Source of the DNA: a virus
DNA: 39,368 nucleotides
UHGV virus genome: UHGV-0015773
Direction: 5' to 3' (one strand)
A model generated the notes under the pieces. That model made no database searches. It saw only the letters and a list, made by a program, of their open reading frames with translations, and was not told where the DNA came from. A program made the position numbers and the translations under genes. Shown in pieces: positions 22,988-39,335 of the stretch; position 1 is the stretch's first letter; each line of letters opens with the position of its first letter.

Positions 22988-25378
22988 ATGGCGCTCATTA
23001 GCCAATCAATCAAGAACTTGAAGGGTGGTATCAGCCAACAGCCTGACATCCTTCGTTATCCAGACCAAGGGGCACGACAAGTTAACGGTTGGTCTTCGGA
23101 GACCGAGGGCCTCCAAAAGCGTCCACCTCTGGTTTTCCTTAAGACACTAGGAGGAAGCGGTGACTTGGGACAAGCACCTTACATTCACCTGATAAACCGT
23201 GACGAGTACGAGAGGTACTACGCAGTGTTTACAGGAAGTACCATCCGAGTTTTTGACTTATCTGGTAACGAGAAACAAGTGCGTTTCCCCTCAGGGGAAG
23301 CATATATACAGACAGCTAACCCGAGGAATGACCTAAGGATGGTAACAGTTGCCGACTACACGTTTGTCGTTAACAGAAACGTCACCGTAACCGAATCCAC
23401 AGAAATTTCAACTGGTGGTAACTTTCGGGATAAAGGTGACGCGCTGATTAACGTGCGAGGTGGTCAGTACGGAAGAACGTTGAAGGTTCTTATTAATGGT
23501 GTAGTATTTGCATCGTACACAATCCCTAACGGGTCCGCTCCAGAACATGTCAACAATACCGATGCTCAATGGCTGGCTAACGAGTTGGCTACTCAACTCA
23601 GGAACAACCTAGGAACAAGCGGGTGGACATTCAACGTTGGTCAGGGGTTCATTCATGTGATAGCTCCTGCCAACAGTGAGGTAGAAAGCATATCAACCGA
23701 GGATGGGTACGCAGACCAGCTAATTAACCCAGTCACTCACTACGCTCAGTCGTTCTCTAAGTTACCGCCAAACGCTCCAGATGGCTACATGGTTAAGATT
23801 GTAGGAGATTCCTCAAAGTCCGCTGACCAGTATTACGTTCAATATGATGCCGTTCGTAAGGTATGGAAGGAAGTTGTAGGATGGAACACCAAGCTATACT
23901 ATAACCGCGATTCGATGCCTCACGCCCTCATTAGGGCCTCTGACGGTAACTTTGAGTTCAAGGTAATCTCGTGGAACCCTAGGGTGTGCGGTGATGCTGA
24001 TACTAACCCGTATCCTTCATTCGTAGGCTCTACGATTAACGATGTCTTCTTCTTCCGTAACCGTTTAGGATTCCTTAGCGGAGAGAACATCATATTGAGT
24101 CGTACTGCAAAATACTTCAACTTCTTCCCGGCGTCGGTTGCTAACCTAAGTGATGACGACCCTATAGACGTAGCTGTGAGTACCAACCGAATAGCAATCC
24201 TTAAGTACGCCGTTCCGTTCTCAGAGGAGTTACTCATCTGGTCCGATGAAGCACAATTTGTCCTGACTGCTTCCGGCACTCTCACGTCGAAATCGGTTGA
24301 GTTGAACCTAACGACTCAGTTTGACGTACAGGACCGAGCGCGACCTTATGGAATTGGGCGTAATGTCTACTTTGCTAGTCCAAGGTCCAGCTTCACATCC
24401 ATCCACAGGTACTACGCTGTGCAGGATGTAAGTTCCGTCAAGAACGCTGAGGACATCACAGCGCACGTACCTAACTACATACCTAATGGTGTATTTAGTA
24501 TTTGTGGTAGTGGTACAGAAAACTTCTGTTCGGTACTATCTCACGGGGACCCTAGCAAAATCTTCATGTACAAATTCCTGTACCTGAACGAAGAGCTAAG
24601 ACAACAGTCGTGGTCTCACTGGGACTTTGGGCCAAACGTGCAGGTTCTAGCGTGCCAAAGTATCAACTCAGACATGTATGTGATTCTACGTAATGAGTTC
24701 AATACGTTCCTCGCTAAAATCTCTTTCACTAAGAACGCCATTGACTTACAGGGAGAACCATATCGTGCCTTTATGGACATGAAGATTCGCTATACGATTC
24801 CTAGTGGAACATACAACGATGACACCTATACTACCTCGATTCACCTGCCAACAATCTATGGTGCGAACTTCGGTAGGGGAAAAATCACTGTATTGGAGCC
24901 TGACGGTAAGATAACCGTCTTTGAGCAACCTACTGCTGGGTGGCATAGCGACCCTTGGCTTAGACTCGACGGTAACTTAGAGGGACGAGTGGTGTACATT
25001 GGGTTCAACATCGACTTCGTCTATGAGTTCTCTAAGTTCCTCATCAAGCAAACTGCCGACGATGGGTCTACCTCCACGGAAGACATTGGGCGCTTGCAGT
25101 TACGCCGAGCGTGGGTGAATTATGAGAACTCTGGGGCGTTCGACATTTATGTTGAGAACCAATCGTCCAACTGGAAGTACACAATGGCTGGTGCTCGCTT
25201 AGGCTCTAACACTCTGAGGGCTGGGCGATTGAACTTAGGGACCGGACAATACCGATTCCCTGTGGTGGGTAACGCCAAGTTCAATACAGTGTCCATCTTG
25301 TCTGATGAGACTACCCCACTGAACATCATTGGGTGTGGCTGGGAAGGTAACTACCTACGGAGAAGTTCCGGCATTTAA
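22988..25378 (+). CDS. 12: Gene 12 tail tubular protein B (nozzle) (796 aa)
   Basis: MALISQSIKNLKGGISQQPDILRYPDQGARQVNGWSSETEGLQKRPPLVF... is near-identical to T7 gp12. Confidence 0.97.
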   Translation: MALISQSIKNLKGGISQQPDILRYPDQGARQVNGWSSETEGLQKRPPLVFLKTLGGSGDLGQAPYIHLINRDEYERYYAVFTGSTIRVFDLSGNEKQVRFPSGEAYIQTANPRNDLRMVTVADYTFVVNRNVTVTESTEISTGGNFRDKGDALINVRGGQYGRTLKVLINGVVFASYTIPNGSAPEHVNNTDAQWLANELATQLRNNLGTSGWTFNVGQGFIHVIAPANSEVESISTEDGYADQLINPVTHYAQSFSKLPPNAPDGYMVKIVGDSSKSADQYYVQYDAVRKVWKEVVGWNTKLYYNRDSMPHALIRASDGNFEFKVISWNPRVCGDADTNPYPSFVGSTINDVFFFRNRLGFLSGENIILSRTAKYFNFFPASVANLSDDDPIDVAVSTNRIAILKYAVPFSEELLIWSDEAQFVLTASGTLTSKSVELNLTTQFDVQDRARPYGIGRNVYFASPRSSFTSIHRYYAVQDVSSVKNAEDITAHVPNYIPNGVFSICGSGTENFCSVLSHGDPSKIFMYKFLYLNEELRQQSWSHWDFGPNVQVLACQSINSDMYVILRNEFNTFLAKISFTKNAIDLQGEPYRAFMDMKIRYTIPSGTYNDDTYTTSIHLPTIYGANFGRGKITVLEPDGKITVFEQPTAGWHSDPWLRLDGNLEGRVVYIGFNIDFVYEFSKFLIKQTADDGSTSTEDIGRLQLRRAWVNYENSGAFDIYVENQSSNWKYTMAGARLGSNTLRAGRLNLGTGQYRFPVVGNAKFNTVSILSDETTPLNIIGCGWEGNYLRRSSGI

Positions 25379-25408
25379 TTAAACGTTCTCCCTGTGGTGG
25401 CTCGAAAT

Positions 25409-25431
25409 TAATACGACTCACTATAGGGAGA
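25409..25431 (+). promoter_or_regulatory. T7-RNAP promoter phi13, with flanking inverted repeat (R13 region)
   Basis: taatacgactcactatagggaga has +1 G at 25426. The upstream gttctccct and the transcribed agggagaac form an inverted repeat. Confidence 0.88.
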
Positions 25432-25458
25432 ACAATATGACTACGGGAGGGTTTTCTT

Positions 25459-25875
25459 ATGATGATTATAAGACCTACTAAAAGTACAGACTTTGAGGTA
25501 TTCACTCCGGCTCACCATGACATTCTTGAAGCTAAGGCTGCTGGTATTGAGCTGAGTTTCCCTGATGCTTCCGAGTGTGTCACGTTGAGCCTACATGGGT
25601 TCCCTCTAGCTATCGGTGGTAACTGTGGGGACCGGTGCTGGTTCGTTACGAGTGACCAAGTGTGGCGACTTAGTGGAAAAGCTAAGCGAGAGTTCCGTAA
25701 GTTAATCATGGAGTATCGCGATAAGATGCTTGAGAAGTATGATACTCTTTGGAATTACGTATGGGTAGGCAATACGTCCCACATTCGTTTCCTCAAGACT
25801 ATCGGTGCGGTATTCCATGAAGAGTACACACGAGATGGTCAATTTCAATTATTCACAATAACGAAAGGAGGATAA
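25459..25875 (+). CDS. 13: Gene 13 internal virion/assembly protein (138 aa)
   Basis: MMIIRPTKSTDFEVFTPAHHDILEAKAAGIELSFPDASECVTLSLHGFPLA... is collinear with T7 gp13. Confidence 0.93.
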   Translation: MMIIRPTKSTDFEVFTPAHHDILEAKAAGIELSFPDASECVTLSLHGFPLAIGGNCGDRCWFVTSDQVWRLSGKAKREFRKLIMEYRDKMLEKYDTLWNYVWVGNTSHIRFLKTIGAVFHEEYTRDGQFQLFTITKGG

Positions 25876-25879
25876 CCAT

Positions 25880-26470
25880 ATGTGTTGGGCAGCCGCAATT
25901 CCTATCGCTATAGCTGGTGCTCAGGCTATCAGTGGTCAGAACGCTCAGGCCAAAATGATTGCCTCTCAGACCGCTGCTGGTCGTCGCCAAGCTATGGAAA
26001 TCATGAGGCAGACGAACATCCAGAATGCTGACCTATCGTTGCAAGCCCGAAGTCGCCTTGAGGAAGCGTCCTCTGAGTTGACCTCTCAGAACATGCAGAA
26101 GGTCCAAGCTATGGGGTCTATCCGAGCGGCTATCGGAGAGAGTATGCTTGAAGGTGCCTCAATGGACCGCATTAAGCGAGTCACAGAGGGGCAGTTCATT
26201 CGGGAAGCCAATATGGTGACTGAGAACTATCGCCGCGACTACCAAGCAATCTTCGCACAGCAACTGGGTGGCACTCAAAGTGCTGCAAGCCAGATTAACG
26301 AAATCTATAAGGGTGAGCAGAAGCAGAAGAGTAAGCTACAGATGGTTCTGGACCCTCTGGCTATCATGGGGTCTTCCGCTGCGAGTGCTTACGCATCCGG
26401 TGCGTTTGACTCTAAGTCCACAAACAAGGCACCTATTGTTGCCGCTAAAGGAACCAAGACGGGGAGGTAA
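25880..26470 (+). CDS. 14: Gene 14 internal core protein A (196 aa)
   Basis: MCWAAAIPIAIAGAQAISGQNAQAKMIASQTAAGRRQAMEIMRQTNIQNAD... is collinear with T7 gp14. Confidence 0.95.
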   Translation: MCWAAAIPIAIAGAQAISGQNAQAKMIASQTAAGRRQAMEIMRQTNIQNADLSLQARSRLEEASSELTSQNMQKVQAMGSIRAAIGESMLEGASMDRIKRVTEGQFIREANMVTENYRRDYQAIFAQQLGGTQSAASQINEIYKGEQKQKSKLQMVLDPLAIMGSSAASAYASGAFDSKSTNKAPIVAAKGTKTGR

Positions 26471-26476
26471 TGAGCT

Positions 26477-28720
26477 ATGAGTAAAATTGAATCTGCCCTT
26501 CAAGCGGCACAACCGGGACTCTCTCGGTTACGTGGTAGCACTGGTGGTATGGGCTATCGTGCCGCAACCACTCAGGCTGAGCAACCAAAGTCCAGCCTAT
26601 TGGACACCATTGGTCGGTTCGCTAAGGCCGGTGCTGATATGTACACCGCTAAGGAGCAACGAGCACGCGACCTCGCTGACGAACGTTCCAACGAGATTAT
26701 CCGTAAGCTGACTCCTGAGCAGCGCCGAGAGGCTCTCAACAAAGGAACCCTTCTGTATCAGGATGACCCATACGCTATGGAAGCACTACGAGTCAAGACT
26801 GGTCGTAACGCTGCGTACCTTGTGGACGATGACGTTATGCAGAAGATTAAAGAGGGTGTCTTCCGTACTCGTGAAGAGATGGAAGAGTATCGCCATAGTC
26901 GTCTTCAAGAGGGCGCTAAGTCATACGCTGAGCAGTTCGGTATTGACCCTGATGACGTTGATTATCAGCGTGGGTTCAATGGGGACATCACCGAGCGTAA
27001 CATCTCACTGTATGGGGCACACGATAGCTTCTTGAGTCAACAGGCTCAGAAGGGTGCCATCATGAACAGCCGAGTGGAACTCAACGGTGTCCTCCAAGAC
27101 CCTGATATGCTTCGCCGCCCAGACTCTGCTGACTTCTTTGAGAAGTACATCGACAACGGTCTGGTCACTGGTGCAATCCCGTCTGACGCTCAGGCCACAC
27201 AGCTTATCAGCCAAGCATTCAGTGATGCTTCTAGCCGCGCTGGTGGTGCTGACTTCCTGATGCGAGTGGGCGACAAGAAGGTAACACTTAACGGTGCCAC
27301 TACGACTTACCGCGAGTTAATGGGCGAAGAGCAGTGGAATGCTCTCATGGTGACAGCGCAACGTTCTCAGTTTGAGAATGACGCTAAGCTGAACGAGCAG
27401 TATCGCTTGAAGATTAACTCTGCGCTGAACCAAGAAGACCCTCGTACTGCGTGGGAGATGCTTCAAGGTATCAAGGCTGAACTCGATAAGGTGCAACCTG
27501 ATGAGCAGATGACACCGCAACGTGAGTGGTTAATCTCAGCACAGGAGCAAGTTCAGAATCAGATGAACGCATGGACGAAAGCTCAGGCCAAGGCTCTGGA
27601 TGACTCTATGAAGTCAATGAATAAACTTGACGTAATCGACAAGCAGTTCCAGAAGCGAATCAACGGAGAGTGGGTCTCAACGGACGTTAAGGATATGCCA
27701 GTCAACGAGAACACTGGTGAGTTCAAGCATAGCGATATGGTTAACTACGCCAATAAGAAGCTCGCCGAGATTGACCGTATGGACATCCCAGATAGTGCCA
27801 AGGACATGATGAAGTTGAAATACCTTCAAGCTGACTCTAAGGACGGTGCATTCCGTACAGCAATCGGAACTATGGTGACTGACGCCAGTCAAGAGTGGTC
27901 TGCCGCCGTGATTAACGGTAAGTTACCTGAACGAACACCAGCTATGGATGCTCTACGCAGAATCCGCAATGCTGACCCTCAGTTGATTGCCGCTCTGTAT
28001 CCTGACCAAGCTGAGTTATTCCTGACTATGGACATGATGGACAGGCAGGGTATTGACCCTCAGGTTATTCTTGATGCTGACCGACTGACTGCCAAACGTT
28101 CCAAAGAGCAACGCTTCGAGGACGATAAGGCGTTCGAGTCTGCATTGAATAGCTCTACGGCTCCTGAGATTGCCCGTATGCCAGCGTCACTTCGTGAATC
28201 TGCACGCAAGATTTATGACTCCGTTAAGTTCCGCTCAGGTAACGAAAGCATGGCTATGGAGCAGATGACCAAGTTTCTTAAGGAATCTACCTACACGTTT
28301 ACTGGTGACGATGTTGACGGTGATACCGTTGGTGTAATTCCGAAGAACCTGATGCAAGTCAACTCTGACCCAAAATCGTGGGAGCAAGGTCGTGATATTC
28401 TGGAGGAAGCACGTAAGGGAATCATTGCGAGCAACCCTTGGATAACCAACAAGCAACTGACCATGTACTCACAAGGTGACTCCATCTATCTTATGGATAC
28501 CACTGGTCAAGTCCGAGTCCGGTACGACAAAGAGTTACTCTCGAAGGTCTGGAGTGAGAACCAGAAGAAACTCGAAGAGAAAGCTCGTGAGAATGCTCTG
28601 GCTGAGGCCAACAAGCGAGCACCTATCGTTGCCGCTAAGAAGGCCCGTGAAGCTGGTGCTAAACGAGTCCGAGAGAAACGTAAACAGACTCCGAAGTTCA
28701 TCTATGGACGTAAGGAGTAA
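26477..28720 (+). CDS. 15: Gene 15 internal core protein B (747 aa)
   Basis: MSKIESALQAAQPGLSRLRGSTGGMGYRAATTQAEQPKSSLLDTIGRFAK... is collinear with T7 gp15. Confidence 0.96.
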   Translation: MSKIESALQAAQPGLSRLRGSTGGMGYRAATTQAEQPKSSLLDTIGRFAKAGADMYTAKEQRARDLADERSNEIIRKLTPEQRREALNKGTLLYQDDPYAMEALRVKTGRNAAYLVDDDVMQKIKEGVFRTREEMEEYRHSRLQEGAKSYAEQFGIDPDDVDYQRGFNGDITERNISLYGAHDSFLSQQAQKGAIMNSRVELNGVLQDPDMLRRPDSADFFEKYIDNGLVTGAIPSDAQATQLISQAFSDASSRAGGADFLMRVGDKKVTLNGATTTYRELMGEEQWNALMVTAQRSQFENDAKLNEQYRLKINSALNQEDPRTAWEMLQGIKAELDKVQPDEQMTPQREWLISAQEQVQNQMNAWTKAQAKALDDSMKSMNKLDVIDKQFQKRINGEWVSTDVKDMPVNENTGEFKHSDMVNYANKKLAEIDRMDIPDSAKDMMKLKYLQADSKDGAFRTAIGTMVTDASQEWSAAVINGKLPERTPAMDALRRIRNADPQLIAALYPDQAELFLTMDMMDRQGIDPQVILDADRLTAKRSKEQRFEDDKAFESALNSSTAPEIARMPASLRESARKIYDSVKFRSGNESMAMEQMTKFLKESTYTFTGDDVDGDTVGVIPKNLMQVNSDPKSWEQGRDILEEARKGIIASNPWITNKQLTMYSQGDSIYLMDTTGQVRVRYDKELLSKVWSENQKKLEEKARENALAEANKRAPIVAAKKAREAGAKRVREKRKQTPKFIYGRKE

Positions 28721-28745
28721 CTAAGGCTACATAAGGAGGCCCTAA

Positions 28746-31700
28746 ATGGATAAGTACGATAAGAACGTACCAAGTGAATATGATGGTCTGTTCCAGAAGG
28801 CGGCTGATGCCAACGGGGTCTCTTATGACCTTTTACGTAAAGTAGCTTGGACGGAATCACGGTTTAAACCTACAGCAAAATCTAAGACAGGACCGCTCGG
28901 TATGATGCAGTTCACCAAGGCCACAGCTAAGGCCATGGGACTACGTGTTACCGACGGTCCAGATGATGACCGATTGAATCCTGAGTTGGCTATCAACGCT
29001 GCCGCTAAGCACCTTGCGAATCTGGTTGGTAAGTTTGATGGAGATGAACTTAAAGCTGCCCTTGCGTATAACCAAGGCGAGGGACGCTTGGGTAATCCAC
29101 AACTTGAGGCGTACTCCAAGGGAGACTTCGCGGCTATCTCTGAGGAAGGGCGTAACTACATGCGTAGCCTTCTTGATGTCGCTAAGTCACCGATGGCTGG
29201 ACAGTTGGAAACTTTTGGTGGTATCACCCCAAAGGGTAAAGGCATTCCGGCTGACGTTGGACTAGCTGGAATCGGCCACAGTCAGAAAGTAACACAGGAA
29301 CTTCCTGAGTCCACAAGTTTTGACGTTAAGGGTATCGAACAGGAGGCTCCGGCGAAACCATTCGCCAAGGACTTTTGGGAGACCCACGGAGAAACACTTG
29401 ATGAGTACAACAAGCGTTCCACCTTCTTCGGATTCAAAGATGCTGCCAAAGCTGAACTCTCCAACTCAGTCGCTGGGATGGCTTTCCGTGCTGGTCGTCT
29501 CGATAATGGTTTTGATGTGTTTAAAGACACCATTACGCCGACTCGCTGGAACTCGCACATCTGGACTCCAGAAGAGTTAGAGAAGATTCGAACCGAGGTT
29601 AAGAACCCTGCGTATATCAATGTGGTAACTGGCGGTTCTCCTGAGAACCTTGATGACCTCATAAAGCTGGCTAACGAGAACTTTGAGAATGACTCCCGTG
29701 CTGCCGAAGCTGGTCTAGGTGCTAAACTTAGTGCTGGCGTTATCGGCGCTGGCGTGGACCCACTCAGTTATGTTCCTATGGTCGGCGTGACTGGTAAGGG
29801 CTTTAAGTTAGTCAATAAGGCCCTTGTGGTTGGTGCCGAAAGTGCTGCACTGAACGTTGCATCCGAAGGTCTCCGTACCTCCGTAGCTGGTGGTAACGCT
29901 GACTACTCAGGTGCTGCTTTAGGTGGCTTTTTGTTTGGTGCCGGTATGTCCGCAATCAGTGACTCTGTAGCTGCTGGGCTGAAACGTAGTAAGCCAGAAG
30001 TTGAGTTCGACAATGAGTTCATTGGTCCTATGATGCGAATGGAATCCCGTGAGACAGCACGCAACGCAAACTCTACGGACCTCTCTCGGATGAACACTGA
30101 GAACATGAAGTTTGAAGGCGAACACAACGGTATTCCCTATGAGGACTTACCTACCGAGAAAGGTGCCGTGGTGTTACATGATGGCTCCGTTATAAGTGCA
30201 AGCAACCCAACCAACCCTAAGACCCTCAAAGAGTTCTCAGAGGTTGACCCTGAGAAGGCTGCGCGAGGAATCAAACTTGCTGGGTTCACAGAGATTGGAT
30301 TGAAGACCTTGGGGTCTGACGATGCTGACATCCGTAGAGTGGCTATCGACCTCGTTCGCTCACCTACTGGTATGCAGTCTGGTTCCTCAGGTAAGTTCGG
30401 TGCAACAGCTTCGGACATCCACGAGAGACTTCATGGTACTGACCAGCGCACTTACAATGACCTGTACAAAGCGATGTCTGACGCGATGAAAGACCCTGAG
30501 TTCTCTACTGGTGGTGCTAAGATGTCTCGCGAAGAGACTCGATACACTATCTACCGTAGAGCGGCATTAGCCATTGAGCGTCCAGAGTTGCAGAATGCAC
30601 TCACTCCGTCTGAGAGAGTAGTCATGGACATCATTAAGCGCCACTTTGACACCAAGCGTGAACTCATGGAGAACCCAGCAATCTTCGGCAATACGAAGGC
30701 TGTTAGTATCTTCCCTGAGAGTCGTCACAAAGGGACTTACGTTCCTCATGTCTACGACCGACACGCTAAGGCGCTGATGATTCAACGCTACGGTGCCGAA
30801 GGTTTACAGGAAGGGATTGCTCGCTCATGGATGAACAGCTACGTCTCCAGACCTGAGGTCAAGGCGAGAGTCGATGAGATGCTTAAGGAATTACATGGGG
30901 TGAAGGTAGTAACGCCAGAGATGGTGGAGAAGTACGCTATGGATAAGGCGTATGGTATCTCCCACTCCGACCAGTTCACCAACAGTTCCATAATCGAAGA
31001 GAACATTGAGGGCTTAGTAGGTGTTGAGAATAACTCATTCCTTGAGGCACGTAACTTGTTTGATTCGGACTTATCCATCACTATGCCAGACGGACAGCAA
31101 TTCTCAGTGAACGACCTAAGGGACTTCGATATGTTCCGCATCATGCCAGCGTATGACCGCCGTGTCAATGGTGACATCGCCATCATGGGGTCCACTGGGA
31201 AAACCACTAAGGAACTTAAGGATGAGATTTTGGCTCTCAAAGCGAAAGCTGAGGGTGACGGTAAGAAGACTGGCGAGGTTCATGCTCTTATGGATACCGT
31301 TAAGATTCTTACTGGTCGTGCTCGACGCAATCAGGACACTGTGTGGGAAACCTCGATGCGAGCCATCAATGACCTAGGGTTCTTCGCTAAGAACGCCTAC
31401 ATGGGTGCTCAGAACCTTACCGAGATTGCTGGGATGTTTGCCACAGGTAACGTGCGTGCTATCAGTCACGGTATCCCAATTCTGCGTGATACACTCTACA
31501 AGTCTAAACCAGTTTCCGCTAAGGAACTCAAGGAACTACACGCGTCTCTGTTCGGGAAGGAGGTGGACCAGTTGATTCGCCCTAAACGTGCTGACATTGT
31601 ACAGCGCATAAGGGAAGCGACTGATACCGGACCTGCTGTGTCGAACATCGTAGGGACCTTGAAGTATACCACACAGGAACTGGCTGCTAGCTCTCCGTGG

Positions 31701-32702
31701 ACTAAGATGCTGAACGGAACCACTAACTACCTTCTGGATGCTGCGCGTCAAGGTATGCTTGGGGACGTTATTAGTGCCACCTTAACAGGTAAGACTACCC
31801 GCTGGGAGAAAGAAGGATTCCTTCGTGGTGCCTCTGTGACACCTGAGCAGATGGCTGGCATCAAGTCTCTAATCAAGGAACACATGGTACGTGGTGAGGA
31901 CGGGAAGTTTACCGTTAAGGACAAGCAAGCGTTCTCTATGGACCCTCGCGCTATGGACTTATGGCGACTTGCTGACAAGGTAGCTGATGAAGCGATGCTG
32001 CGTCCACATAAGGTGTCCTTACAGGATTCCCATGCGTTCGGAGCATTAGGTAAGATGGTTATGCAGTTTAAGTCTTTCACCATTAAATCCCTTAACTCTA
32101 AGTTCATGAGAACCTTCTACGATGGCTACAAGAACAACCGAGCGATTGACGCTGCGCTGACTAGTATCATCTCTATGGGTCTCGCTGGTGGTTACTACGC
32201 TATGGCTGCACACGTCAAAGCGTATGGAATGCCTAAGGAGCAACGTAAAGAATACTTGGAGCGCGCATTGGACCCAAACATGATTGCCCACGCTTCGTTG
32301 TCTCGTAGTTCTCAATTAGGTGCGCCTTTGGCTATGGCTGACCTAGTCGGTGGTATCTTAGGGGTAGAGTCCTCCAAGATGGTTCGCTCCACGATTCTAC
32401 CTAAGGACACCATGAAGGAGCGTGACCCAAATAAACCGTACACCTCAAGAGAGGTAATGGGAGCTATGGGTTATAACCTTCTGGAGCAGATGCCTTCCGC
32501 TGGCTTTGTGGCTAACGTAGGGGCTACCCTGATGAACGCTGCTGGTGTGGTTAACTCACCTAACAAAGCAACCGAGCAGGACTTCATGACTGGCTTAATG
32601 AACTCTACCAAAGAGTTAGTACCTAACGACCCTCTTACTCAACAGCTTGTGTTGAAGATTTATGAGGCCAACGGTGTTAACTTGAAGGAGCGTCGGAAAT
32701 AA
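28746..32702 (+). CDS. 16: Gene 16 internal core protein D, with an N-terminal lytic transglycosylase domain (1318 aa)
   Basis: The N-terminus ...LLRKVAWTESRFKPTAKSKTGPLGMMQF... has the SLT-domain catalytic-Glu context. Length and sequence match T7 gp16. Confidence 0.97.
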   Translation: MDKYDKNVPSEYDGLFQKAADANGVSYDLLRKVAWTESRFKPTAKSKTGPLGMMQFTKATAKAMGLRVTDGPDDDRLNPELAINAAAKHLANLVGKFDGDELKAALAYNQGEGRLGNPQLEAYSKGDFAAISEEGRNYMRSLLDVAKSPMAGQLETFGGITPKGKGIPADVGLAGIGHSQKVTQELPESTSFDVKGIEQEAPAKPFAKDFWETHGETLDEYNKRSTFFGFKDAAKAELSNSVAGMAFRAGRLDNGFDVFKDTITPTRWNSHIWTPEELEKIRTEVKNPAYINVVTGGSPENLDDLIKLANENFENDSRAAEAGLGAKLSAGVIGAGVDPLSYVPMVGVTGKGFKLVNKALVVGAESAALNVASEGLRTSVAGGNADYSGAALGGFLFGAGMSAISDSVAAGLKRSKPEVEFDNEFIGPMMRMESRETARNANSTDLSRMNTENMKFEGEHNGIPYEDLPTEKGAVVLHDGSVISASNPTNPKTLKEFSEVDPEKAARGIKLAGFTEIGLKTLGSDDADIRRVAIDLVRSPTGMQSGSSGKFGATASDIHERLHGTDQRTYNDLYKAMSDAMKDPEFSTGGAKMSREETRYTIYRRAALAIERPELQNALTPSERVVMDIIKRHFDTKRELMENPAIFGNTKAVSIFPESRHKGTYVPHVYDRHAKALMIQRYGAEGLQEGIARSWMNSYVSRPEVKARVDEMLKELHGVKVVTPEMVEKYAMDKAYGISHSDQFTNSSIIEENIEGLVGVENNSFLEARNLFDSDLSITMPDGQQFSVNDLRDFDMFRIMPAYDRRVNGDIAIMGSTGKTTKELKDEILALKAKAEGDGKKTGEVHALMDTVKILTGRARRNQDTVWETSMRAINDLGFFAKNAYMGAQNLTEIAGMFATGNVRAISHGIPILRDTLYKSKPVSAKELKELHASLFGKEVDQLIRPKRADIVQRIREATDTGPAVSNIVGTLKYTTQELAASSPWTKMLNGTTNYLLDAARQGMLGDVISATLTGKTTRWEKEGFLRGASVTPEQMAGIKSLIKEHMVRGEDGKFTVKDKQAFSMDPRAMDLWRLADKVADEAMLRPHKVSLQDSHAFGALGKMVMQFKSFTIKSLNSKFMRTFYDGYKNNRAIDAALTSIISMGLAGGYYAMAAHVKAYGMPKEQRKEYLERALDPNMIAHASLSRSSQLGAPLAMADLVGGILGVESSKMVRSTILPKDTMKERDPNKPYTSREVMGAMGYNLLEQMPSAGFVANVGATLMNAAGVVNSPNKATEQDFMTGLMNSTKELVPNDPLTQQLVLKIYEANGVNLKERRK

Positions 32703-32722
32703 TACGACTCACTATAGGGAGA
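32700..32722 (+). promoter_or_regulatory. T7-RNAP promoter phi17
   Basis: taatacgactcactatagggagaggtgaaagaatcttctccc has +1 G at 32717, with a small stem-loop GGGAGA...TCTCCC in the leader. Confidence 0.9.
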
Positions 32723-32774
32723 GGTGAAAGAATCTTCTCCCTGTAGTCTCTTAGATTTACTTTAAGGAGGTCAA

Positions 32775-35507
32775 ATGGCTAACGTAATTAAAACCGTTTT
32801 GACTTACCAGCTAGATGGCTCCACTCGTGATTTTAATATCCCGTTTGAGTATCTAGCCCGTAAGTTCGTAGTGGTAACTCTTATTGGTGTAGACCGTAAG
32901 GTCCTTACACTTAATACAGACTATCGCTTTGCTACACGTACTACCATCTCTCTGACCAAGGCTTGGGGTACATCCGATGGATACACGACCATCGAGATAC
33001 GTCGAGTAACCTCCACGACTGACCGCTTGGTTGACTTTACGGACGGCTCAATCCTCCGTGCGTATGACCTTAACGTTGCTCAGGTTCAAACGATGCACGT
33101 AGCGGAAGAGGCCCGTGACCTTACTGCTGATACTATCGGTGTCAATAACGATGGTCACTTGGATGCTCGTGGTCGTCGAATTGTGAACCTAGCGAACGCT
33201 GTGGATGACCGTGACGCTGTTCCGTTTGGTCAACTTAAGACCATGAACCAGAACTCGTGGCAGGCTCGTAATGAGGCCTTACAGTTCCGTAATGAGGCTG
33301 AGACTTTCAGAAATCAAGCGGAGGGCTTTAAGAACGAGTTAAGTACTAACGCTACGAACACAAAGCAGTGGCGGGATGATGCTAAGGGGTTCCGAGATGA
33401 AGCCGAGCAGTTCAAGAATACTTCTGGACAATATGCTACATCTGCTGGGAACTCTGCTGGCAATGCTAAGGATAGTGAGGACGAAGCACGACGAATCGCT
33501 GCGAGTATCAAGGCAGCTGGTAGAATTGGCTATATTACCCGTCGCTCCTTCGAGAAAGGCTTCAACGTTACAACATGGAACGAGGTCCTGCTATGGGAAG
33601 AGGATGGTGAGTACTACCGCTGGGATGGGGAGCTTCCAAAGAACGTTCCTGCTGGCTCAACTCCTGAATCATCTGGTGGTATTGGGCTGGGTGCGTGGGT
33701 TAGTGTTGGTGATGCCTCATTGAGAACAATGCTGTCTTCCCCTTCAGGGTCCACGTTGGTCGGATATAGATATAAGTCAGAAGATTCAGCAAGCGTCAGG
33801 AATGTTGCTGATGTTCTTGATGAGCGTGTGAGCCTGTGGGATTTTCATTGTGACTCATCCGGCAATGTAATTCAGCCAGGACCAAACGTTGACAGTCGCC
33901 AATATCTACAAGCAGCAATTGATTATGTATCGTCTAATGGAGGTGGAACAATCACCATTCCAGCAGGCTATACGTGGTATCTTGGATCTTATGGTGTTGG
34001 AGGAATTGCAGGGCATAGTGGAATTATTCAGTTGCGCAGCAATGTTAATCTAAATATTGAAGGTAGAATTCATCTTTCTCCATTCTTTGACCTTAAGCCA
34101 TTTCAGGTGTTTGTAGGCTTTGATAATGGCGATCCCGCAAGCTCTGGTAATCTGGAGAACTGCCATATTTATGGGCATGGTGTAGTGGACTTTGGTGATT
34201 ATGAGTTTGGAGCATCCAGTCAACTACGTAATGGTGTTGCTTTTGGACGTAGTTACAATTGTTCTGTAACAGGTATTACTTTCCAGAATGGTGACGTTAC
34301 TTGGGCTGTTACCTTAGGCTGGAATGGGTACGGGTCTAACTGCTACGTGCGCAAGTGCCGCTTTATCAACTTAGTGAACAGCAGTGTCAATGCAGACCAC
34401 AGTACAGTGTACGTCAACTGCCCCTACAGCGGAGTTGAGTCCTGCTACTTCAGTATGTCTAGTTCATTCGCGCGTAACATCGCGTGCTCTGTAGAGTTGC
34501 ACCAACATGATACCTTCTACCGCGGAAGTACTGTAAACGGATACTGCCGTGGCGCATATGTAGTTATGCACGCAGCAGAGGCTGCTGGTGCAGGTTCTTA
34601 TGCTTACAACATGCAGGTTGAAAACAACATCGCGGTCATTTACGGCCAGTTCGTTATATTAGGCTCTGACGTAACTGCTACAGTCTCTGGACATCTTAAT
34701 GACGTCATCGTATCTGGTAACATCGTAAGTATTGGTGCGCGGGCTGCGTTCTCAGCTCCGTTTGGGGCATTTATTGATATTGGCCCGGACAATAGCGGGG
34801 CTAGTAATGTACAAGATATCCGGCGAGTGCTTGTAACAGGCAACAGTTTCTATGCGCCTGCTAACATCACTGATAGTGCTGCAATTACCCTGCGATCCAA
34901 TCTTAATGGTTGCACCTTTATCGCTAACAATTTTGATTGCCGTTACATGGTCTACAACGCCCCCGGTACTACAAGCCCTGTAGTTCAGAATCTGGTATGG
35001 GATAAGTCCAATGTTATCGGCGGGACTCACGCGAATCAACGTGTAGGACAGAATCTATTTGATATGCAGTTTGCATCTGTAGTAAACAGCACTATAGAAG
35101 TACAGCTTAGCTGTGAAGATCTGAGCATGTTTAGCTGCATACTCTTCCCTGCATCATGTCAGTTGTCGTACTCGAAGATAACGGTAGATTCTGCATGGAC
35201 AAAAAGCATGTCAAATACCGCGGTATTTGAAGGTAATCAACAAACCGGAGCTAACGTATACGTCTCCTATCCAGCCACAGTAAACCTAACCAGTTATAAC
35301 ACTACAGGTGCCGTTCCTTTTTTCAGCGGTACTGGATATGAATGGGTTACTAGTGCGTATCTACTCCACACCGTAGGCGGCAGTAACTTTTCTGTTCCAA
35401 GTAGTTATTCATCAAAACCTAACGGACAATTAGTAGGGTTAGGGTATGCAGACGTCGGGGAGGTTCGTACGGTATCGGCACGTTTAATGCTGCGCCGTGG
35501 TTTGTAA
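32775..35507 (+). CDS. 17: Gene 17 tail fibre/tailspike (910 aa): a T7-like N-terminal tail-attachment domain fused to a long, non-T7 C-terminal module predicted to be a beta-helix tailspike or polysaccharide depolymerase
   Basis: Residues 1 to about 220 (MANVIKTVLTYQLDGSTRDFNIPFEYLARKFVVVTLIGVDRKVL...FRNQAEGFKNE...YATSAGNSA) are collinear with T7 gp17. The remainder (GYITRRSFEKGFNVTTWNEVLLWEEDGEYYRWDGELPKNVPAGSTPESSGGIGLGAWVSVGDASLRTMLSSPSGSTLVGY... plus many G/N/V/I-rich rung-like repeats) is unrelated to the T7 fibre and resembles tailspike proteins. Confidence 0.9.
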   Translation: MANVIKTVLTYQLDGSTRDFNIPFEYLARKFVVVTLIGVDRKVLTLNTDYRFATRTTISLTKAWGTSDGYTTIEIRRVTSTTDRLVDFTDGSILRAYDLNVAQVQTMHVAEEARDLTADTIGVNNDGHLDARGRRIVNLANAVDDRDAVPFGQLKTMNQNSWQARNEALQFRNEAETFRNQAEGFKNELSTNATNTKQWRDDAKGFRDEAEQFKNTSGQYATSAGNSAGNAKDSEDEARRIAASIKAAGRIGYITRRSFEKGFNVTTWNEVLLWEEDGEYYRWDGELPKNVPAGSTPESSGGIGLGAWVSVGDASLRTMLSSPSGSTLVGYRYKSEDSASVRNVADVLDERVSLWDFHCDSSGNVIQPGPNVDSRQYLQAAIDYVSSNGGGTITIPAGYTWYLGSYGVGGIAGHSGIIQLRSNVNLNIEGRIHLSPFFDLKPFQVFVGFDNGDPASSGNLENCHIYGHGVVDFGDYEFGASSQLRNGVAFGRSYNCSVTGITFQNGDVTWAVTLGWNGYGSNCYVRKCRFINLVNSSVNADHSTVYVNCPYSGVESCYFSMSSSFARNIACSVELHQHDTFYRGSTVNGYCRGAYVVMHAAEAAGAGSYAYNMQVENNIAVIYGQFVILGSDVTATVSGHLNDVIVSGNIVSIGARAAFSAPFGAFIDIGPDNSGASNVQDIRRVLVTGNSFYAPANITDSAAITLRSNLNGCTFIANNFDCRYMVYNAPGTTSPVVQNLVWDKSNVIGGTHANQRVGQNLFDMQFASVVNSTIEVQLSCEDLSMFSCILFPASCQLSYSKITVDSAWTKSMSNTAVFEGNQQTGANVYVSYPATVNLTSYNTTGAVPFFSGTGYEWVTSAYLLHTVGGSNFSVPSSYSSKPNGQLVGLGYADVGEVRTVSARLMLRRGL

Positions 35508-35549
35508 CAACTTTGGGTCACGGACGACCCGCTTTAAACTGGAGGTTTT

Positions 35550-35753
35550 ATGCTTTCATTAGATTTCAATAATGAGTTAGTCAAGGCTGCACCTATTGTT
35601 GGCACAGGTGTGGCTGATGGCGCTGCGAGGCTTTTCTTCGGGCTGAGTCTTAATGAGTGGTTCTATGTTGCCGCTATCGCCTATACAGTGGTTCAGATTG
35701 GTGCCAAGGTAGTCGATAAGATGATTGACTGGAAGAAAGCCAATAAGGAGTGA
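35550..35753 (+). CDS. 17.5: Gene 17.5 class II holin (67 aa)
   Basis: MLSLDFNNELVKAAPIVGTGVADGAARLFFGLSLNEWFYVAAIAYTVVQIGAKVVDKMIDWKKANKE is near-identical to T7 gp17.5. Confidence 0.95.
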   Translation: MLSLDFNNELVKAAPIVGTGVADGAARLFFGLSLNEWFYVAAIAYTVVQIGAKVVDKMIDWKKANKE

Positions 35754-35758
35754 TGTGT

Positions 35759-36028
35759 ATGGAAAAAGATAAGAGCCTTATCACGTTCTTAGAGATGTTG
35801 GACACTGCGATGGCACAGCGTATGCTTGCGGACCTTTCGGACCCTGAGCGTCGTTCTCCACAACTCTATAACGCCATCAACAAACTGTTAGACCGCCATA
35901 AGTTCCAGATTGGTAAGCTGCAACCTGATGAGCACATCTTGGGTGGGCTTGCTGGTGCTCTGGACGAGTACAAGTCTAAAGTTGGAGACGATGGTCTCAC
36001 TGATGACGATATTTACACTTTACAGTGA
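35759..36028 (+). CDS. 18: Gene 18 terminase small subunit (89 aa)
   Basis: The internal ATG, with AAGGAG 8 nt upstream, gives MEKDKSLITFLEMLDTAMAQRMLADLSDPERRSPQLYNAINKLLDRHKFQ..., collinear with T7 gp18. Confidence 0.93.
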   Translation: MEKDKSLITFLEMLDTAMAQRMLADLSDPERRSPQLYNAINKLLDRHKFQIGKLQPDEHILGGLAGALDEYKSKVGDDGLTDDDIYTLQ

Positions 36029-36070
36029 TATACTCAAGGCCACTACATATAGTGGTCTTTATGGATGTCA
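36028..36070 (+). promoter_or_regulatory. R18.5: RNase III site R18.5
   Basis: gatatactcaaggccactacatatagtggtctttatggatgtca carries the hairpin signature. Confidence 0.7.
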
Positions 36071-36122
36071 TTGTCTATACGAGATGCTCCTACGTGAAAT
36101 CTGAAAGTTAACGGGAGGCATT

Positions 36123-36566
36123 ATGCTGGAATTTTTACGTAAGCTGGTCCCTTGGGTTCTCGCTGGGATGCTATTCGGATGGGGATGGCAACTTGGGGAA
36201 GACTCCATGGACGCTAAGTGGAAGCAGGAGGTACAGAATGAGTACGTCAAGAGAGTTGAGGCTACGGCAAGCACTCAAAGAGCAATCAATGAAATATCGT
36301 CTAAGTATCAAGCAGACCTTGCCGAGTTGGAATGGAGCACTGATAGGATTATTTCTGATTTGCGTAGCGACAATAAGCGGTTGCGCGTCAGAATCAAAAC
36401 TACCGGAACCTCCGATGGTCAGTGTGGATTCGAGCCTGATGGTCGAGCCGAACTTGACGAGCGAGATGCTAAGCGTATTCTCGCAGTGACCCAAAGGGGT
36501 GACGCATGGATTCGTGCGTTACAAGATACTATTCGTGAACTGCAACGTAAGCAGGAAATCAAGTAA
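36123..36566 (+). CDS. 18.5: Gene 18.5 Rz-like i-spanin (147 aa)
   Basis: An N-terminal transmembrane segment ([22 protein letters not shown]) is followed by a coiled-coil periplasmic domain, collinear with T7 gp18.5. Confidence 0.93.
36238..36489 (+). CDS. 18.7: Gene 18.7 Rz1-like o-spanin lipoprotein (83 aa), embedded in the +1 frame of 18.5
   Basis: The internal ATG of track ORF 36193-36489 gives [59 protein letters not shown]..., with a lipobox [10 protein letters not shown] and a Pro-rich mature part, as in T7 gp18.7. Confidence 0.85.
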   Translation: MSTSRELRLRQALKEQSMKYRLSIKQTLPSWNGALIGLFLICVATISGCASESKLPEPPMVSVDSSLMVEPNLTSEMLSVFSQ

Positions 36567-36577
36567 GGAGGAACCCT

Positions 36578-38338
36578 GTGTCCGCTCAAGCCAATCGTAA
36601 TGCGCTCGTTGTGGCGCAACTGAAAGGTGACTTCGTGGCGTTCCTGTTCGTCTTATGGAAGGCGTTAAACCTTCCTGTACCGACTAAGTGCCAGATAGAC
36701 ATGGCTAAGGTACTGGCGAACGGGGACAACAAGAAGTTCATACTACAGGCTTTCCGTGGTATCGGTAAGTCATTCATAACCTGTGCGTTCGTTGTGTGGT
36801 CCTTATGGAGAGACCCACAGTTGAAGATACTTATTGTATCAGCCTCTAAGGAACGTGCAGATGCTAACTCCATCTTCATCAAGAACATCATCGACCTGCT
36901 GCCGTTTCTCAGTGAGCTAAAGCCAAGACCCGGACAGCGCGATTCTGTGATTAGTTTCGACGTAGGCCCAGCTAAGCCTGACCACTCTCCTAGTGTGAAA
37001 TCGGTAGGTATCACTGGTCAGTTAACTGGTAGCCGTGCTGACATTATCATTGCGGATGACGTTGAGATTCCGTCTAACAGTGCAACTATGGGTGCCCGTG
37101 AGAAACTATGGACTCTCGTTCAGGAGTTCGCTGCGTTACTTAAACCGCTGCCCACTTCTCGTGTTATCTACCTCGGTACACCTCAGACTGAGATGACTCT
37201 CTATAAGGAACTTGAGGATAACCGTGGGTACACCACTATCATCTGGCCTGCCCTGTATCCAAGGACTCCTGAAGAGAACCTTTACTACTCTCAGCGTCTG
37301 GCACCAATGCTCCGTGCGGAGTACGAGGAGAATCCTGAGGCGCTGGCTGGGACTCCTACAGACCCTGTTCGATTCGACCGTGATGACCTCCGTGAACGTG
37401 AGTTGGAATACGGCAAGGCTGGCTTTACGCTACAGTTCATGCTTAACCCGAACCTGAGTGATGCCGAGAAGTACCCTCTGAGGCTCCGTGACGCTATCGT
37501 AGCGGCCTTAGACTTAGAGAAGGCCCCGATGCATTACCAGTGGCTTCCGAACCGTCAGAACATCATTGAGGACCTTCCTAACGTTGGCCTTAAGGGTGAT
37601 GACCTTCATACTTATCATGATTGCTCCAACAACTCAGGTCAGTACCAACAGAAGATTCTGGTCATTGACCCTAGTGGTCGCGGTAAGGACGAAACAGGTT
37701 ACGCTGTTCTGTACACCCTGAACGGTTATATCTACCTTATGGAAGCTGGAGGTTTCCGTGATGGCTACTCCGATAAGACCCTTGAGTTGCTCGCTAAGAA
37801 AGCTAAGCAATGGGGAGTCCAGACGGTAGTCTACGAGAGTAACTTCGGTGACGGTATGTTTGGTAAGGTGTTCAGTCCTATCCTTCTTAAACACCACAAC
37901 TGTGCAATGGAAGAGATTCGTGCCCGTGGTATGAAGGAGATGCGTATTTGTGATACCCTTGAGCCAGTCATGCAGACTCACCGCCTTGTCATTCGCGATG
38001 AGGTCATTAGGGCCGACTATCAGTCCGCTCGTGACGTAGACGGTAAGCATGACGTTAAGTACTCACTGTTCTACCAGATGACTCGTATCACTCGTGAGAA
38101 AGGCGCTCTGGCTCATGATGACCGATTGGACGCCCTTGCGTTGGGCATTGAGTACCTACGTGAGTCCATGCAGTTGGATTCCGTTAAGGTCGAAGGTGAA
38201 GTGCTTGCTGACTTCCTTGAGGAACACATGATGCGTCCTACGGTCGCTGCTACGCATATCATTGAGATGTCTGTGGGAGGAGTTGATGTGTACTCTGAGG
38301 ACGATGAGGGTTACGGTACGTCTTTCATTGAGTGGTGA
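36578..38338 (+). CDS. 19: Gene 19 terminase large subunit (DNA maturase B) (586 aa)
   Basis: A GTG start follows [58 protein letters not shown]... is near-identical to T7 gp19 and has a Walker A-like ATPase motif. Confidence 0.97.
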
Positions 38339-38419
38339 TTTATGCATTAGGACTGCATAGGGATGCACTATAGACCACGGATGGTCAGTTCTTTAAGTTA
38401 TTGAAAAGACACGATAAAT

Positions 38420-38442
38420 TAATACGACTCACTATAGGGAGA
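38420..38442 (+). promoter_or_regulatory. T7-RNAP promoter phiOR
   Basis: taatacgactcactatagggaga, with +1 G at 38437. Confidence 0.9.
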
Positions 38443-38596
38443 GGAGGGACGAAAGGTTACTATATAGATACTGAATGAATACTTATAGAGTGCATAAAGT
38501 ATGCATAGTAGTGTACCTAAAGTGACCTCTAAGAATGGTGATTATATTGTATTAATATCACCTTAACTTAAAGTCCAACATAAAGGGAGGATACTC

Positions 38597-38746
38597 ATGT
38601 TCCGCTTATTGTTGAACCTACTGCGGCATAGAGTCACCTACCGATTTCTTGTGGTACTTTGTGCTGCCCTTGGGTACGCATCTCTTACTGGAGACCTCAG
38701 TTCACTGGAGTCTACCGTTTGCTCTATACTCACTTGTAGTGATTAG
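38597..38746 (+). CDS. 19.5: Gene 19.5 (49 aa)
   Basis: MFRLLLNLLRHRVTYRFLVVLCAALGYASLTGDLSSLESTVCSILTCSD matches T7 gp19.5. The RBS AAAGGGAGG lies upstream. Located by hand. Confidence 0.75.
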   Translation: MFRLLLNLLRHRVTYRFLVVLCAALGYASLTGDLSSLESTVCSILTCSD

Positions 38747-38799
38747 GGTCTTCCTGACCGACTGATGGCTCACCGAGGGATTCAGCGGTATGATTGTAT

Positions 38800-38985
38800 C
38801 ACACCACTTCATCCCTATAGAGTCAAGTCCTAAGGTATACCCTTAAAGAGCCTCTAATGGTCTATCCTAAGGTCTATACCTAAAGATAGGCCATCCTATC
38901 AGTATCACCTAAAGAGGGTCTCAGAGAGGGCCTAAGGAGTTCCTAGAGGGTCCTTTAAAATATACCATAAAAATCTGAGTGACTA
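38800..38985 (+). repeat. Right-end array of short degenerate direct repeats (CCTAAGG / CCTAAAG / CCTATAG family), preceding the terminal repeat
   Basis: Repeated cctaaggtatac, cttaaagagcc, cctaaggtctatacctaaagatagg, cacctaaagaggg, gcctaaggag and cctagaggg. In T7 this region is essentially identical and takes part in concatemer processing and packaging. Confidence 0.7.
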
Positions 38986-39145
38986 TCTCACAGTGTACGG
39001 ACCCAAAGTTCCCCCATAGGGGTCCCTAAAGCCCAGCCAATCACCTAAAGCCAACCGAAGGTTGACCTTGAGGGTTCCCTAAGGGTTGGGGTTGACCCTT
39101 TGAGTTGTCCTTGGGGTGTTACCTTGAGTGTCTCTTCTTGTCCCT
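38986..39145 (+). repeat. TR: 160-bp terminal repeat (direct terminal redundancy), present as a single collapsed copy
   Basis: tctcacagtgtacggacccaaagttcccccatagggg...gtgtctcttcttgtccct matches the T7 TR (TCTCACAGTGTACGGACCTAAAGTTCCCCCATAGGGGG...) apart from a few substitutions. Its location shows the assembly is circularly permuted. Confidence 0.85.
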
Positions 39146-39335
39146 ATCTGTTACAGCCTCCTAAAGTATCCTCCTAAAGTCACCTCCTAACGTCATTCCT
39201 AAAGCCTACACCTAAAGACTACACCTAAAGACACCATGAGTCAATCCCATCTTAAAGTATCTTCTAAAGACCATCCTAAAGACCATCCTAAAGCCTATCC
39301 TATAGATGCCTTGTTGTTACCTATAAAGAGATAAT
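39146..39335 (+). repeat. Left-end array of CCTAAAG-type heptamer direct repeats (at least 10 copies)
   Basis: cctcctaaagtatcctcctaaagtcacctcctaacg...cacctaaagactacacctaaagacacc...atcttaaagtatcttctaaagaccatcctaaagaccatcctaaagcctatcctatag. This is the known T7 left-end feature between TR and phiOL. Confidence 0.8.

Follow-up and report, generated by a model that had tools for sequence, protein, structure and literature searches.

Organization of gene 17

Gene 17 of the virus genome UHGV-0015773, a T7-like sequence of 39,368 nucleotides (nt) referred to here as the window, encodes a chimeric tailspike. The gene lies behind a promoter and a ribosome-binding site of its own and ahead of a holin gene. 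Four Pfam domains (PF03906, PF18668, PF18781 and PF22424) are found in its product, which has 910 amino acids (aa) in the open reading frame (ORF) listing, against 553 aa for the gp17 fibre in the T7 sequence record. These lengths agree with those given in a first-pass annotation of the window, made from its letters alone. The features of the locus are collected in Table 1.

The N-terminal part of the protein is of T7 type. The first 684 nt of the gene are 93.3% identical to T7 gene 17, and the similarity ends there. At the protein level, identity to T7 gp17 is 96% over aa 1-160 and 91% over aa 161-228, and falls to 33% over aa 229-252. PF03906, a tail-attachment domain homologous to T7 gp17 aa 1-149, covers aa 1-162 (E 2.8e-71), and a search of the PDB aligned aa 1-249 with the N-terminus of T7 gp17 (7boz/8e4g, E 1.5e-140). 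The peptides quoted in the first-pass annotation all occur at the places it implied: FRNEAETFRNQAEGFKNE at aa 171-188, where T7 also has it; YATSAGNSA at aa 220-228; and GNAKDSEDEARR, which is not in T7, at aa 229-240. Its description of collinearity with T7 that stops abruptly was accurate, but the stop falls at 33458/33459, 18 nt beyond the start of 33441 that it gave for the foreign part.

The window thus shares with T7 gp17 the first 228 residues (91-96%), the position of the gene and the phi17 promoter, whereas the distal shaft and the lipopolysaccharide (LPS)-binding tip of the T7 fibre (T7 aa ~229-553) are wholly replaced. No T7 homology is found beyond aa 228 (gene nt 684), and the T7 fibre C-terminal family gives no Pfam match in the gene 17 product. 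The core of the earlier proposal holds: the tail-attachment domain of T7 is joined to ~680 aa of foreign sequence, of right-handed beta-helix glycanase type, that should set host range.

Table 1. Features of gene 17 and of its upstream signals, in window coordinates; residues are numbered along the 910-aa product
Feature	Coordinates	Strand	Basis
phi17-type T7 RNA polymerase promoter for gene 17	32700..32722	+	23/23 match to TAATACGACTCACTATAGGGAGA
Ribosome-binding site AAGGAGG of gene 17	32764-32770		
Gene 17, whole ORF, chimeric tailspike, 910 aa	32775..35507	+	ORF listing, Pfam
T7-type part, aa 1-228: tail-attachment domain and first part of coiled-coil shaft	32775..33458	+	T7 nucleotide and protein identity
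Portable adaptor, aa 229-348: coiled-coil continuation, Tail_spike_N, neck	33459..33818	+	P0001/P0002 nucleotide identity, PF18668
Tail_spike_N domain PF18668, aa 254-313	33534-33713	+	Pfam E 7e-21
Left crossover interval, within conserved DVLDERVSLWDF motif	33819..33829	+	last P0001-type nt 1044, first HK620-type nt 1056 (gene numbering)
HK620-type beta-helix block, aa 349-823: receptor-binding and catalytic domain	33819..35243	+	HK620 gene 9 identity
Widely shared catalytic core, aa 463-752, gene nt ~1387-2257	34161..35031	+	L005/HK620/L007 nucleotide comparison
Catalytic Asp D541 = HK620 D339 (published numbering)	34395..34397	+	codon GAC, context NSSVNADHSTV identical
Catalytic Glu E574 = HK620 E372 (published numbering)	34494..34496	+	codon GAG, context NIACSVELHQH identical
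Putative glucose-pocket Gly G670 = HK620 G468 (published numbering)	34782..34784	+	codon GGC, family alignment
PF18781, aa 701-776			Pfam E 1.9e-53
Right crossover interval, within conserved NTAVFEGNQQ motif	35230..35242	+	last HK620-type nt 2455, first P0001-type nt 2469 (gene numbering)
C-terminal domain, aa 824-910, and stop codon	35244..35507	+	PF22424 aa 831-908, E 1.5e-29

An HK620-type beta-helix block bounded by internal crossovers

The largest foreign segment is nearly identical to the tailspike gene (gene 9) of HK620, a temperate P22-like Lederbergvirus. The two genes differ at 11 of the 1424 nt that make up gene nt 1045-2468 (99.2% identity); the encoded protein is 98.5% identical (tblastn, aa 349-823), and over the wider interval of gene nt 1036-2552 the nucleotide identity is still 97.8%. 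In the PDB, aa 316-908 match more than 20 crystal structures of the HK620 tailspike, 2vji among them, with E=0. The beta-helix and the N-terminal linker that the first-pass annotation had put forward for structural and family searches are therefore both present, the former as HK620 structures at E=0 together with PF18781, the latter as PF18668.

The limits of this segment were mapped by segment-wise protein identities and 90-nt sliding nucleotide windows. The best match is P0001, the spike of an uncultivated T7-like phage (contig L004), for aa 1-345 (90-100%) and aa 852-910 (92%), and HK620 for aa 346-851 (97-99%), a stretch in which P0001, carrying another helix allele, reaches 44-69%. A three-way alignment with HK620 and P0001 then placed the crossovers by its informative sites. 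Between gene nt 1056 and 2455 (window 33830-35229), 589 of 593 such sites are HK620-type, two are P0001-type and two are private, while the flanks, up to gene nt 1044 (window 33818) and from gene nt 2469 (window 35243), are P0001-type. Both switches fall within short motifs, DVLDERVSLWDF on the left and NTAVFEGNQQ on the right, that are kept in both parental types. The foreign part of gene 17 is a nested mosaic with two internal crossovers, and not the single foreign block that had been described.

Surveys for nearer relatives of the block left HK620 in first place. A search of 5,426 complete E. coli genomes for a closer donor gave a best match of 88% over 64% of the query and one partial match at 96.4%; in IMG/VR, HK620 alone reaches 99% and the next best sequence 84%. 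No T7-like carrier of an HK620-type helix was found in 50,697 phage genomes or in IMG/VR. The contig that encodes P0001 was considered as a parental genome, but its identity to the window beyond gene 17 is only 81-93%, no nearer than T7; it was therefore rejected, and only the flanks of the spike are shared.

A mosaic of this kind might also result from metagenome assembly, in which a P0001-type T7-like phage and an HK620-like prophage from one sample were joined artificially. The window does match metagenome scaffolds, both parental sequence types are present in public metagenomes, and the junctions lie in motifs common to both parents. However, the parental proxies are identical to the window for only 11 nt at the left junction and 13 nt at the right one, stretches well under usual assembler k-mer sizes, and the ORF remains intact across two in-frame switches. 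The same sequence has also been recovered by two different assembly pipelines: ENA scaffold L009 agrees with the window at every position over 8733 nt, and Logan contig L010 does so over 3515 nt (100% identity in each case). In addition, an exact-protein look-up finds the identical 910-aa protein on at least five metagenome contigs. Short junction identity, an intact frame and an identical gene in separate assemblies together make an assembly chimera very improbable. The identical contigs were reached through that look-up: an exact 40-mer across the left junction had 0 matches in viral_contigs, metagenome_contigs and genome_contigs, and an exact 50-mer across the right junction had 0 matches in viral_contigs.

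Adaptor, neck and C-terminal domain

Between the T7 anchor and the enzymatic domain lies a segment that is absent from both T7 and HK620 (the apparent nucleotide identity to HK620 is merely 28-42%). Its closest counterparts are the spike genes of P0001 (86-98% nucleotide identity) and of P0002 (92-97%), the latter encoded on L007, a Kayfunavirus contig 95% identical to EcoDS1. At the protein level, P0002 is 92-100% identical over aa ~211/229-348, yet its anchor is 29% identical to that of the window; aa 229-348 therefore behave as a portable adaptor. PF18668, located in this segment between anchor and enzymatic domain, has PDB matches to 9vvr_A and to the N-terminal domains of TSP1, TSP3 and TSP4 of CBA120. 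The motif block singled out in the first-pass annotation is accordingly a genuine tailspike element, but a generic linker and not a signature of capsule specificity.

The C-terminal domain, which belongs to the HK620_9_C family (PF22424), is an allele of the T7-like lineage. Its amino acid identity (aa 824-910) is 93% to P0001 against 67% to HK620 (54-67% depending on the alignment), and its nucleotide identity to P0001 is 91-96%.

Probable identity of the enzyme and its predicted substrate

The HK620 tailspike is an endo-N-acetylglucosaminidase that degrades the O18A1 O-antigen of E. coli by means of Asp339 and Glu372 (PMC8217332, where the residue roles are cited from Barbirz 2008). It also cleaves O18A, but neither O18B nor O18B1 (PMC6024685). 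The published numbering leaves out the initiator Met, and the corresponding offset was applied in locating the equivalent residues of the window. Both catalytic residues are conserved in identical 11-residue contexts, as D541 and E574, and are kept in 20 of the 20 family members examined; the structure 2x6w, an E372Q mutant of HK620, differs from the gene 17 product at exactly E574. The same family alignment recovers D384 and E417, the published catalytic residues of EP75.

Conservation extends to a third position. In EP75 TSP1, which is specific for O18A, a Gly-to-Phe change has been proposed to close the glucose pocket, its residue number not being stated (PMC8217332). The alignment contains a single column with Gly in HK620 and Phe in EP75, at HK620 G468, and this column probably corresponds to the pocket residue. 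The window has Gly at this position (G670), as expected of an open pocket, and K1ind2 has Phe. The gene 17 spike is predicted to cleave the O18A1/O18A O-antigen and to release repeat-unit oligosaccharides, and the predicted host is an E. coli strain bearing O18A1 or O18A.

The first-pass annotation had anticipated a beta-helix glycanase or lyase directed at a capsular polysaccharide or an O-antigen. Glycanase and O-antigen are the halves that fit an HK620-type endo-N-acetylglucosaminidase; lyase and capsule are not. Many T7-like and Klebsiella phages whose spikes combine an anchor with Tail_spike_N do encode capsule depolymerases, for example P0030 and P0033 (PF12708), or P0040 with its endosialidase domains, and a capsule depolymerase or polysaccharide lyase could be imagined here on the strength of that layout. 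However, no pectate-lyase or other lyase family matches the gene 17 product in Pfam at E<=0.1, and the nearest solved homologue, 98.5% identical in the helix, is an O-antigen endoglycosidase whose Asp/Glu pair is that of a hydrolase, so that a capsule enzyme is extremely improbable.

The 11 nucleotide differences from HK620 comprise three synonymous and eight nonsynonymous changes, the latter giving seven substitutions (P159S, G273D, I310V, E453A, Q481R, A506S and A555V in published HK620 numbering). With the foreign neck and C-terminus, they might have altered or abolished the specificity of the enzyme, leaving a spike that acts on O18A only or on another O18 variant, or that binds without cleaving. 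Small changes in the pocket do switch the O18 subtype within the HK620 family, as the EP75 case suggests (PMC8217332); G273D, E453A and Q481R change the charge, and 8 of 11 nucleotide differences are nonsynonymous. Such a loss or shift is nevertheless unlikely, given that neither the catalytic pair nor the pocket Gly has changed, that six of the seven substitutions recur in other natural alleles, consistent with tolerated polymorphism, and that the HK620 tailspike already accepts both O18A1 and O18A.

Composition and direction of the exchange

Gene 17 stands out from the rest of the genome in its composition, as the first-pass annotation had proposed to check. The GC content is 42.5% at 33750-34300 and 42.6% at 35040-35450 (the lowest 0.8% and 2.3% of windows of the same size), values that match its estimate by eye; it is 45.4% over the HK620 block (lowest 0.7%), for a genome value of 48.85%. 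The GC content at third codon positions (GC3) of gene 17, 0.425, is the lowest among ORFs of at least 100 aa, and for aa 349-823 both GC3 (0.411) and codon fit are lower than in all 236 in-frame windows of the same length from other ORFs. The break and the GC and codon pattern of the gene are no chance effect.

These figures had also been taken as a sign of recent acquisition, a conclusion that does not follow from them. The other foreign segments, which are older (aa 229-348 and 824-910), are equally atypical, and homologous spikes elsewhere are equally AT-rich (45.4% GC for the P0001 helix; 44.6% GC and GC3 0.377 for gp17 of the T7-like phage EFA-2). Composition therefore marks a mobile pool of spike genes, and low GC was rejected as evidence of recency. 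The exchange is recent on other grounds, because the block diverges by 0.8% from HK620 while the backbone diverges by 7-8% from T7.

As to its direction, the spikes of eight P22-like prophages (P0009-P0016) are HK620-type through anchor, neck, block and C-terminus, whereas in the window HK620-type sequence is confined to the block. This distribution, together with the lack of T7-like carriers in the surveys above, better supports a transfer from P22-like to T7-like phages. A block that arose in T7-like phages and later moved to HK620-like temperate phages would leave the same junctions, the crossover pattern by itself being symmetric, and the catalytic core circulates in lytic phages too (L005 and L007, see below). 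But the eight prophage alleles are continuously HK620-type at 85-100% identity, with one exception in the neck and one in the C-terminus, as in a diversified resident lineage, and of the T7-like contigs this one alone has the block (P0001 and P0004 being 44-69% identical there), which no T7-like record of the phage collection or IMG/VR carries. The reverse route is accordingly quite unlikely.

A widely shared catalytic core

Within the block, a core that contains both catalytic residues is shared more widely than its surroundings. Over gene nt 1396-2250 it differs at five positions from L005, a Skatevirus-like siphovirus contig, at nine from HK620 and at 44 from L007, the Kayfunavirus contig; its nucleotide identity is >99% to L005 (10001-12166) and 95% to L007 (6001-8430). 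In the parts of the block that flank the core, by contrast, ~30-38% of positions differ from L005 and L007. Since the core is nearer to L005 than to HK620, the immediate donor would have been an HK620-like phage with some L005-type core polymorphisms and not HK620 itself.

The core is thus >99% identical at the nucleotide level in three unrelated lineages, a temperate P22-like podovirus, a virulent T7-like podovirus and a Skatevirus-like siphovirus, and 95% identical in a fourth, the Kayfunaviruses. The flanking rungs (aa 349-462 and 753-823) occur as discrete alleles, which differ at about one-third of nucleotide positions and share 62-72% protein identity. The pattern suggests exchange within the beta-helix domain. 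It is tentatively proposed, as a possibility and no stronger, that the HK620-family helix is modular at the sub-domain level and that flanking rungs may be swapped at homologies of 11-13 nt, tuning the recognition of O18 subtypes. If this were true, natural crossover points within the beta-helix could guide the engineering of tailspike specificity at the level of single rungs.

A layered tailspike and its proposed mode of action

The interpretation favored here, with a probability of about 0.85, is that the product of gene 17 is a trimeric tailspike which recombination has assembled in nested layers, in which a T7 anchor carries a portable adaptor and C-terminus that in turn frame an HK620-type O18 beta-helix enzyme. 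The following scheme draws on what is established for T7 and for tailspikes of the P22 type. In the first layer (aa 1-228), the genus-specific T7 anchor and the proximal coiled coil would attach six trimers to the gp11/gp12 tail, a T7-like mode of attachment expected because of the 96% identity to the solved T7 N-terminal domain. The second layer (aa 229-348 and 824-910), comprising linker, Tail_spike_N, neck and C-terminal domain, would come from a spike pool of T7-like phages and Kayfunaviruses; its sequences do occur in the spikes of uncultivated T7-like and Kayfunavirus phages that bear HK620-family helices. In the third layer (aa 349-823), the two crossovers in short conserved motifs would have brought in the allele of a temperate, HK620-like (P22-like) phage, which was most plausibly resident as a prophage in an O18 lysogen under infection.

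In the virion, the trimeric beta-helix would stand out from the tail on the coiled coil, Tail_spike_N and neck. The helix would bind the O18A1/O18A O-antigen and hydrolyze it via D541 and E574, and by this cleavage the virion would cross the O-antigen layer and reach the outer membrane. The O18 spike would thereby stand in for the tip of the T7 fibre, which binds rough LPS. Lacking that tip, the phage is expected to depend on smooth O18 hosts and to fail on the rough laboratory strains in which T7 grows.

Several points weigh against this layered interpretation. Identity to HK620 is just 33-67% in the neck (aa 316-348) and in the C-terminal domain, so the folding and trimer behavior of the chimera are assumed. 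R683 occurs in none of the 20 other family members compared, one of which has Lys, and one of the seven substitutions could contact the binding groove. The direction of transfer is read from the distribution of alleles among lineages and not from a rooted phylogeny, and the ENA and Logan assemblies may come from the same samples. Finally, both the activity of the spike and its host are deduced from sequence.

Relation to known tailspikes

The closest characterized protein is gp9 of HK620 (PDB 2vji, 2vjj), whose helix, catalytic Asp and Glu, pocket Gly and C-terminal Pfam family recur in the gene 17 product. The differences concern the seven helix substitutions, the neck (33% identical) and the C-terminal allele, and above all the mode of attachment. 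The head-binding domain of HK620 (PF09008) has no Pfam match in the gene 17 product, the apparent identity to HK620 aa 1-113 being 20%, and is replaced by the T7 anchor and Tail_spike_N. The spike is therefore HK620-like as an enzyme, but its attachment is not of the Lederbergvirus type, and its carrier is a virulent T7-like phage instead of a temperate P22-like one.

A search of 5.8 billion proteins for spikes with the four-domain architecture of gene 17 also returned P0001 (L004), P0002 (L007), P0003, P0004 and P0024, on contigs of ~40 kb. The helices of these spikes are other alleles than that of the window. P0001 shares every layer except the helix, as described above. In P0002, the adaptor is 92-100% identical over aa 229-345, and the helix is 94% identical in aa 501-700 and 75-76% in the adjoining segments.

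Glycan-specific members of the Studiervirinae have been described before: K1F with its endosialidase, the O16-dependent Teseptimaviruses Bas102-104, and vB_EcoP_S37A, whose spike combines the gp17 anchor with Tail_spike_N and an enzymatic domain (PMC11990801; PMC13611991; PMC10408124). They are designed alike, in that a gp17 anchor specific to the genus carries an interchangeable C-terminal module that targets a glycan, but they use other catalytic modules and targets, and an HK620-type helix is reported for none of them. Likewise, no T7-like record was found among 18 phage records with the HK620 helix family. Helices of this family are known on anchors other than that of P22, notably in EP75 TSP1 (Kuttervirus; O18A-specific, PMC8217332) and in K1ind1-3 (Kagunavirus). 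These are ~50-54% identical to the helix of the window and keep the catalytic pair, but they have Phe at the pocket column where the window has Gly, and belong to myovirus and siphovirus contexts. The K1ind1-3 phages grow on O18:K1:H7, and the Phe of K1ind2 at the pocket column, as in the O18A-specific EP75 TSP1, fits this host.

Two database observations concern the same family. The GenBank spikes of K1ind1-3 and EP75 that carry an HK620-family helix are labelled 'tailspike 63D sialidase' (for K1ind2, L013, NC_041898.1 21832-23997), which looks like a mis-annotation. In E. coli NZ_CP061754.1 (O18ac:H14 strain 873.10), a prophage tailspike at 1561977-1564843 is 83% identical to the helix of the window and is interrupted by an IS3-family transposase; its presence in an O18ac strain fits the association of this spike family with O18.

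Exchange of the receptor-binding domain (RBD) across genera has been documented, with conserved recombination motifs around the RBD among lytic genera only and not in Lederbergvirus or Uetakevirus prophages (PMC10408124). Glycan-specific Studiervirinae, cross-genus RBD exchange and HK620-family helices on non-P22 anchors were thus already known. The new elements are the HK620 helix on a T7-like phage, a very recent transfer that probably ran from a temperate to a virulent phage, and crossovers inside the receptor-binding domain. Gene 17 is in this sense a familiar case of host-range module swapping that offers a new combination of known modules. What sets it apart is the recency of an exchange (0.8% divergence) across temperate P22-like and virulent T7-like lineages, with crossovers within the RBD and not at the boundary between anchor and RBD.

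These findings provide a concrete host prediction, O18A1/O18A E. coli, for an uncultivated T7-like phage found in several metagenome assemblies. The O18 serogroup includes O18:K1:H7 model strains of extraintestinal pathogenic E. coli, such as UTI89 (PMC11990801). An obligately lytic T7 chassis that bears a well-characterized O18 tailspike could therefore serve in typing or therapy, and the natural junctions in DVLDERVSLWDF and NTAVFEGNQQ offer ready, viable chimera points for the engineering of T7 host range.

Genome backbone and surroundings of gene 17

The backbone of the window is that of a T7-like genome, with an identity of ~92-93% to T7, N30, NC-A and EFA-2. Identity to T7 is 92-93% over 84-95% of two query pieces, and collinearity and T7-type promoters point to a Teseptimavirus. 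No phage record reaches 95% identity genome-wide, the best (T7, N30, NC-A, Pila and EFA-2) being at ~92-94%, and the window phage is probably a new species within this genus. The TAATACGACTCACTATAGGGAGA promoter consensus occurs in six perfect copies (chance expectation 0) among ten T7-promoter-like sites in the window, and 52 nt separate the phi17 promoter from the ATG of gene 17. A promoter and terminator scan of 32600-35700 gave no signal over shuffle expectation.

The EFA-2 record (GenBank MT350293.1, 'Enterococcus phage EFA-2') is a T7-like Studiervirinae genome that is 93.7% identical to window 25001-39253, with 86% of the 14.4-kb query covered, and it encodes a spike with a gp17 anchor and Tail_spike_N. 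Its host label, Enterococcus faecalis, looks implausible for a relative of T7-like coliphages.

Nine nt past the gene 17 stop, in the 42-nt spacer that leads to the holin gene, is a small hairpin (GGGTC-acggac-GACCC, 35516-35531) that lacks a T-run and was passed over by the terminator scan. The spacer is common to EFA-2 and P0001-type phages, T7 homology returning only at 35551. Gene 17 also contains ORFs of 65-115 aa on the minus strand or in alternative frames (33314-33723 and 34640-35039); nothing else supports them, and they are most probably spurious. Near the right end of the window, directly 3' of the terminase gene, the stretch 38250-38700 has the lowest GC content (0.39) in the 9.4 kb profiled at that end; one of the perfect T7 promoters, at 38420-38442, falls within it.

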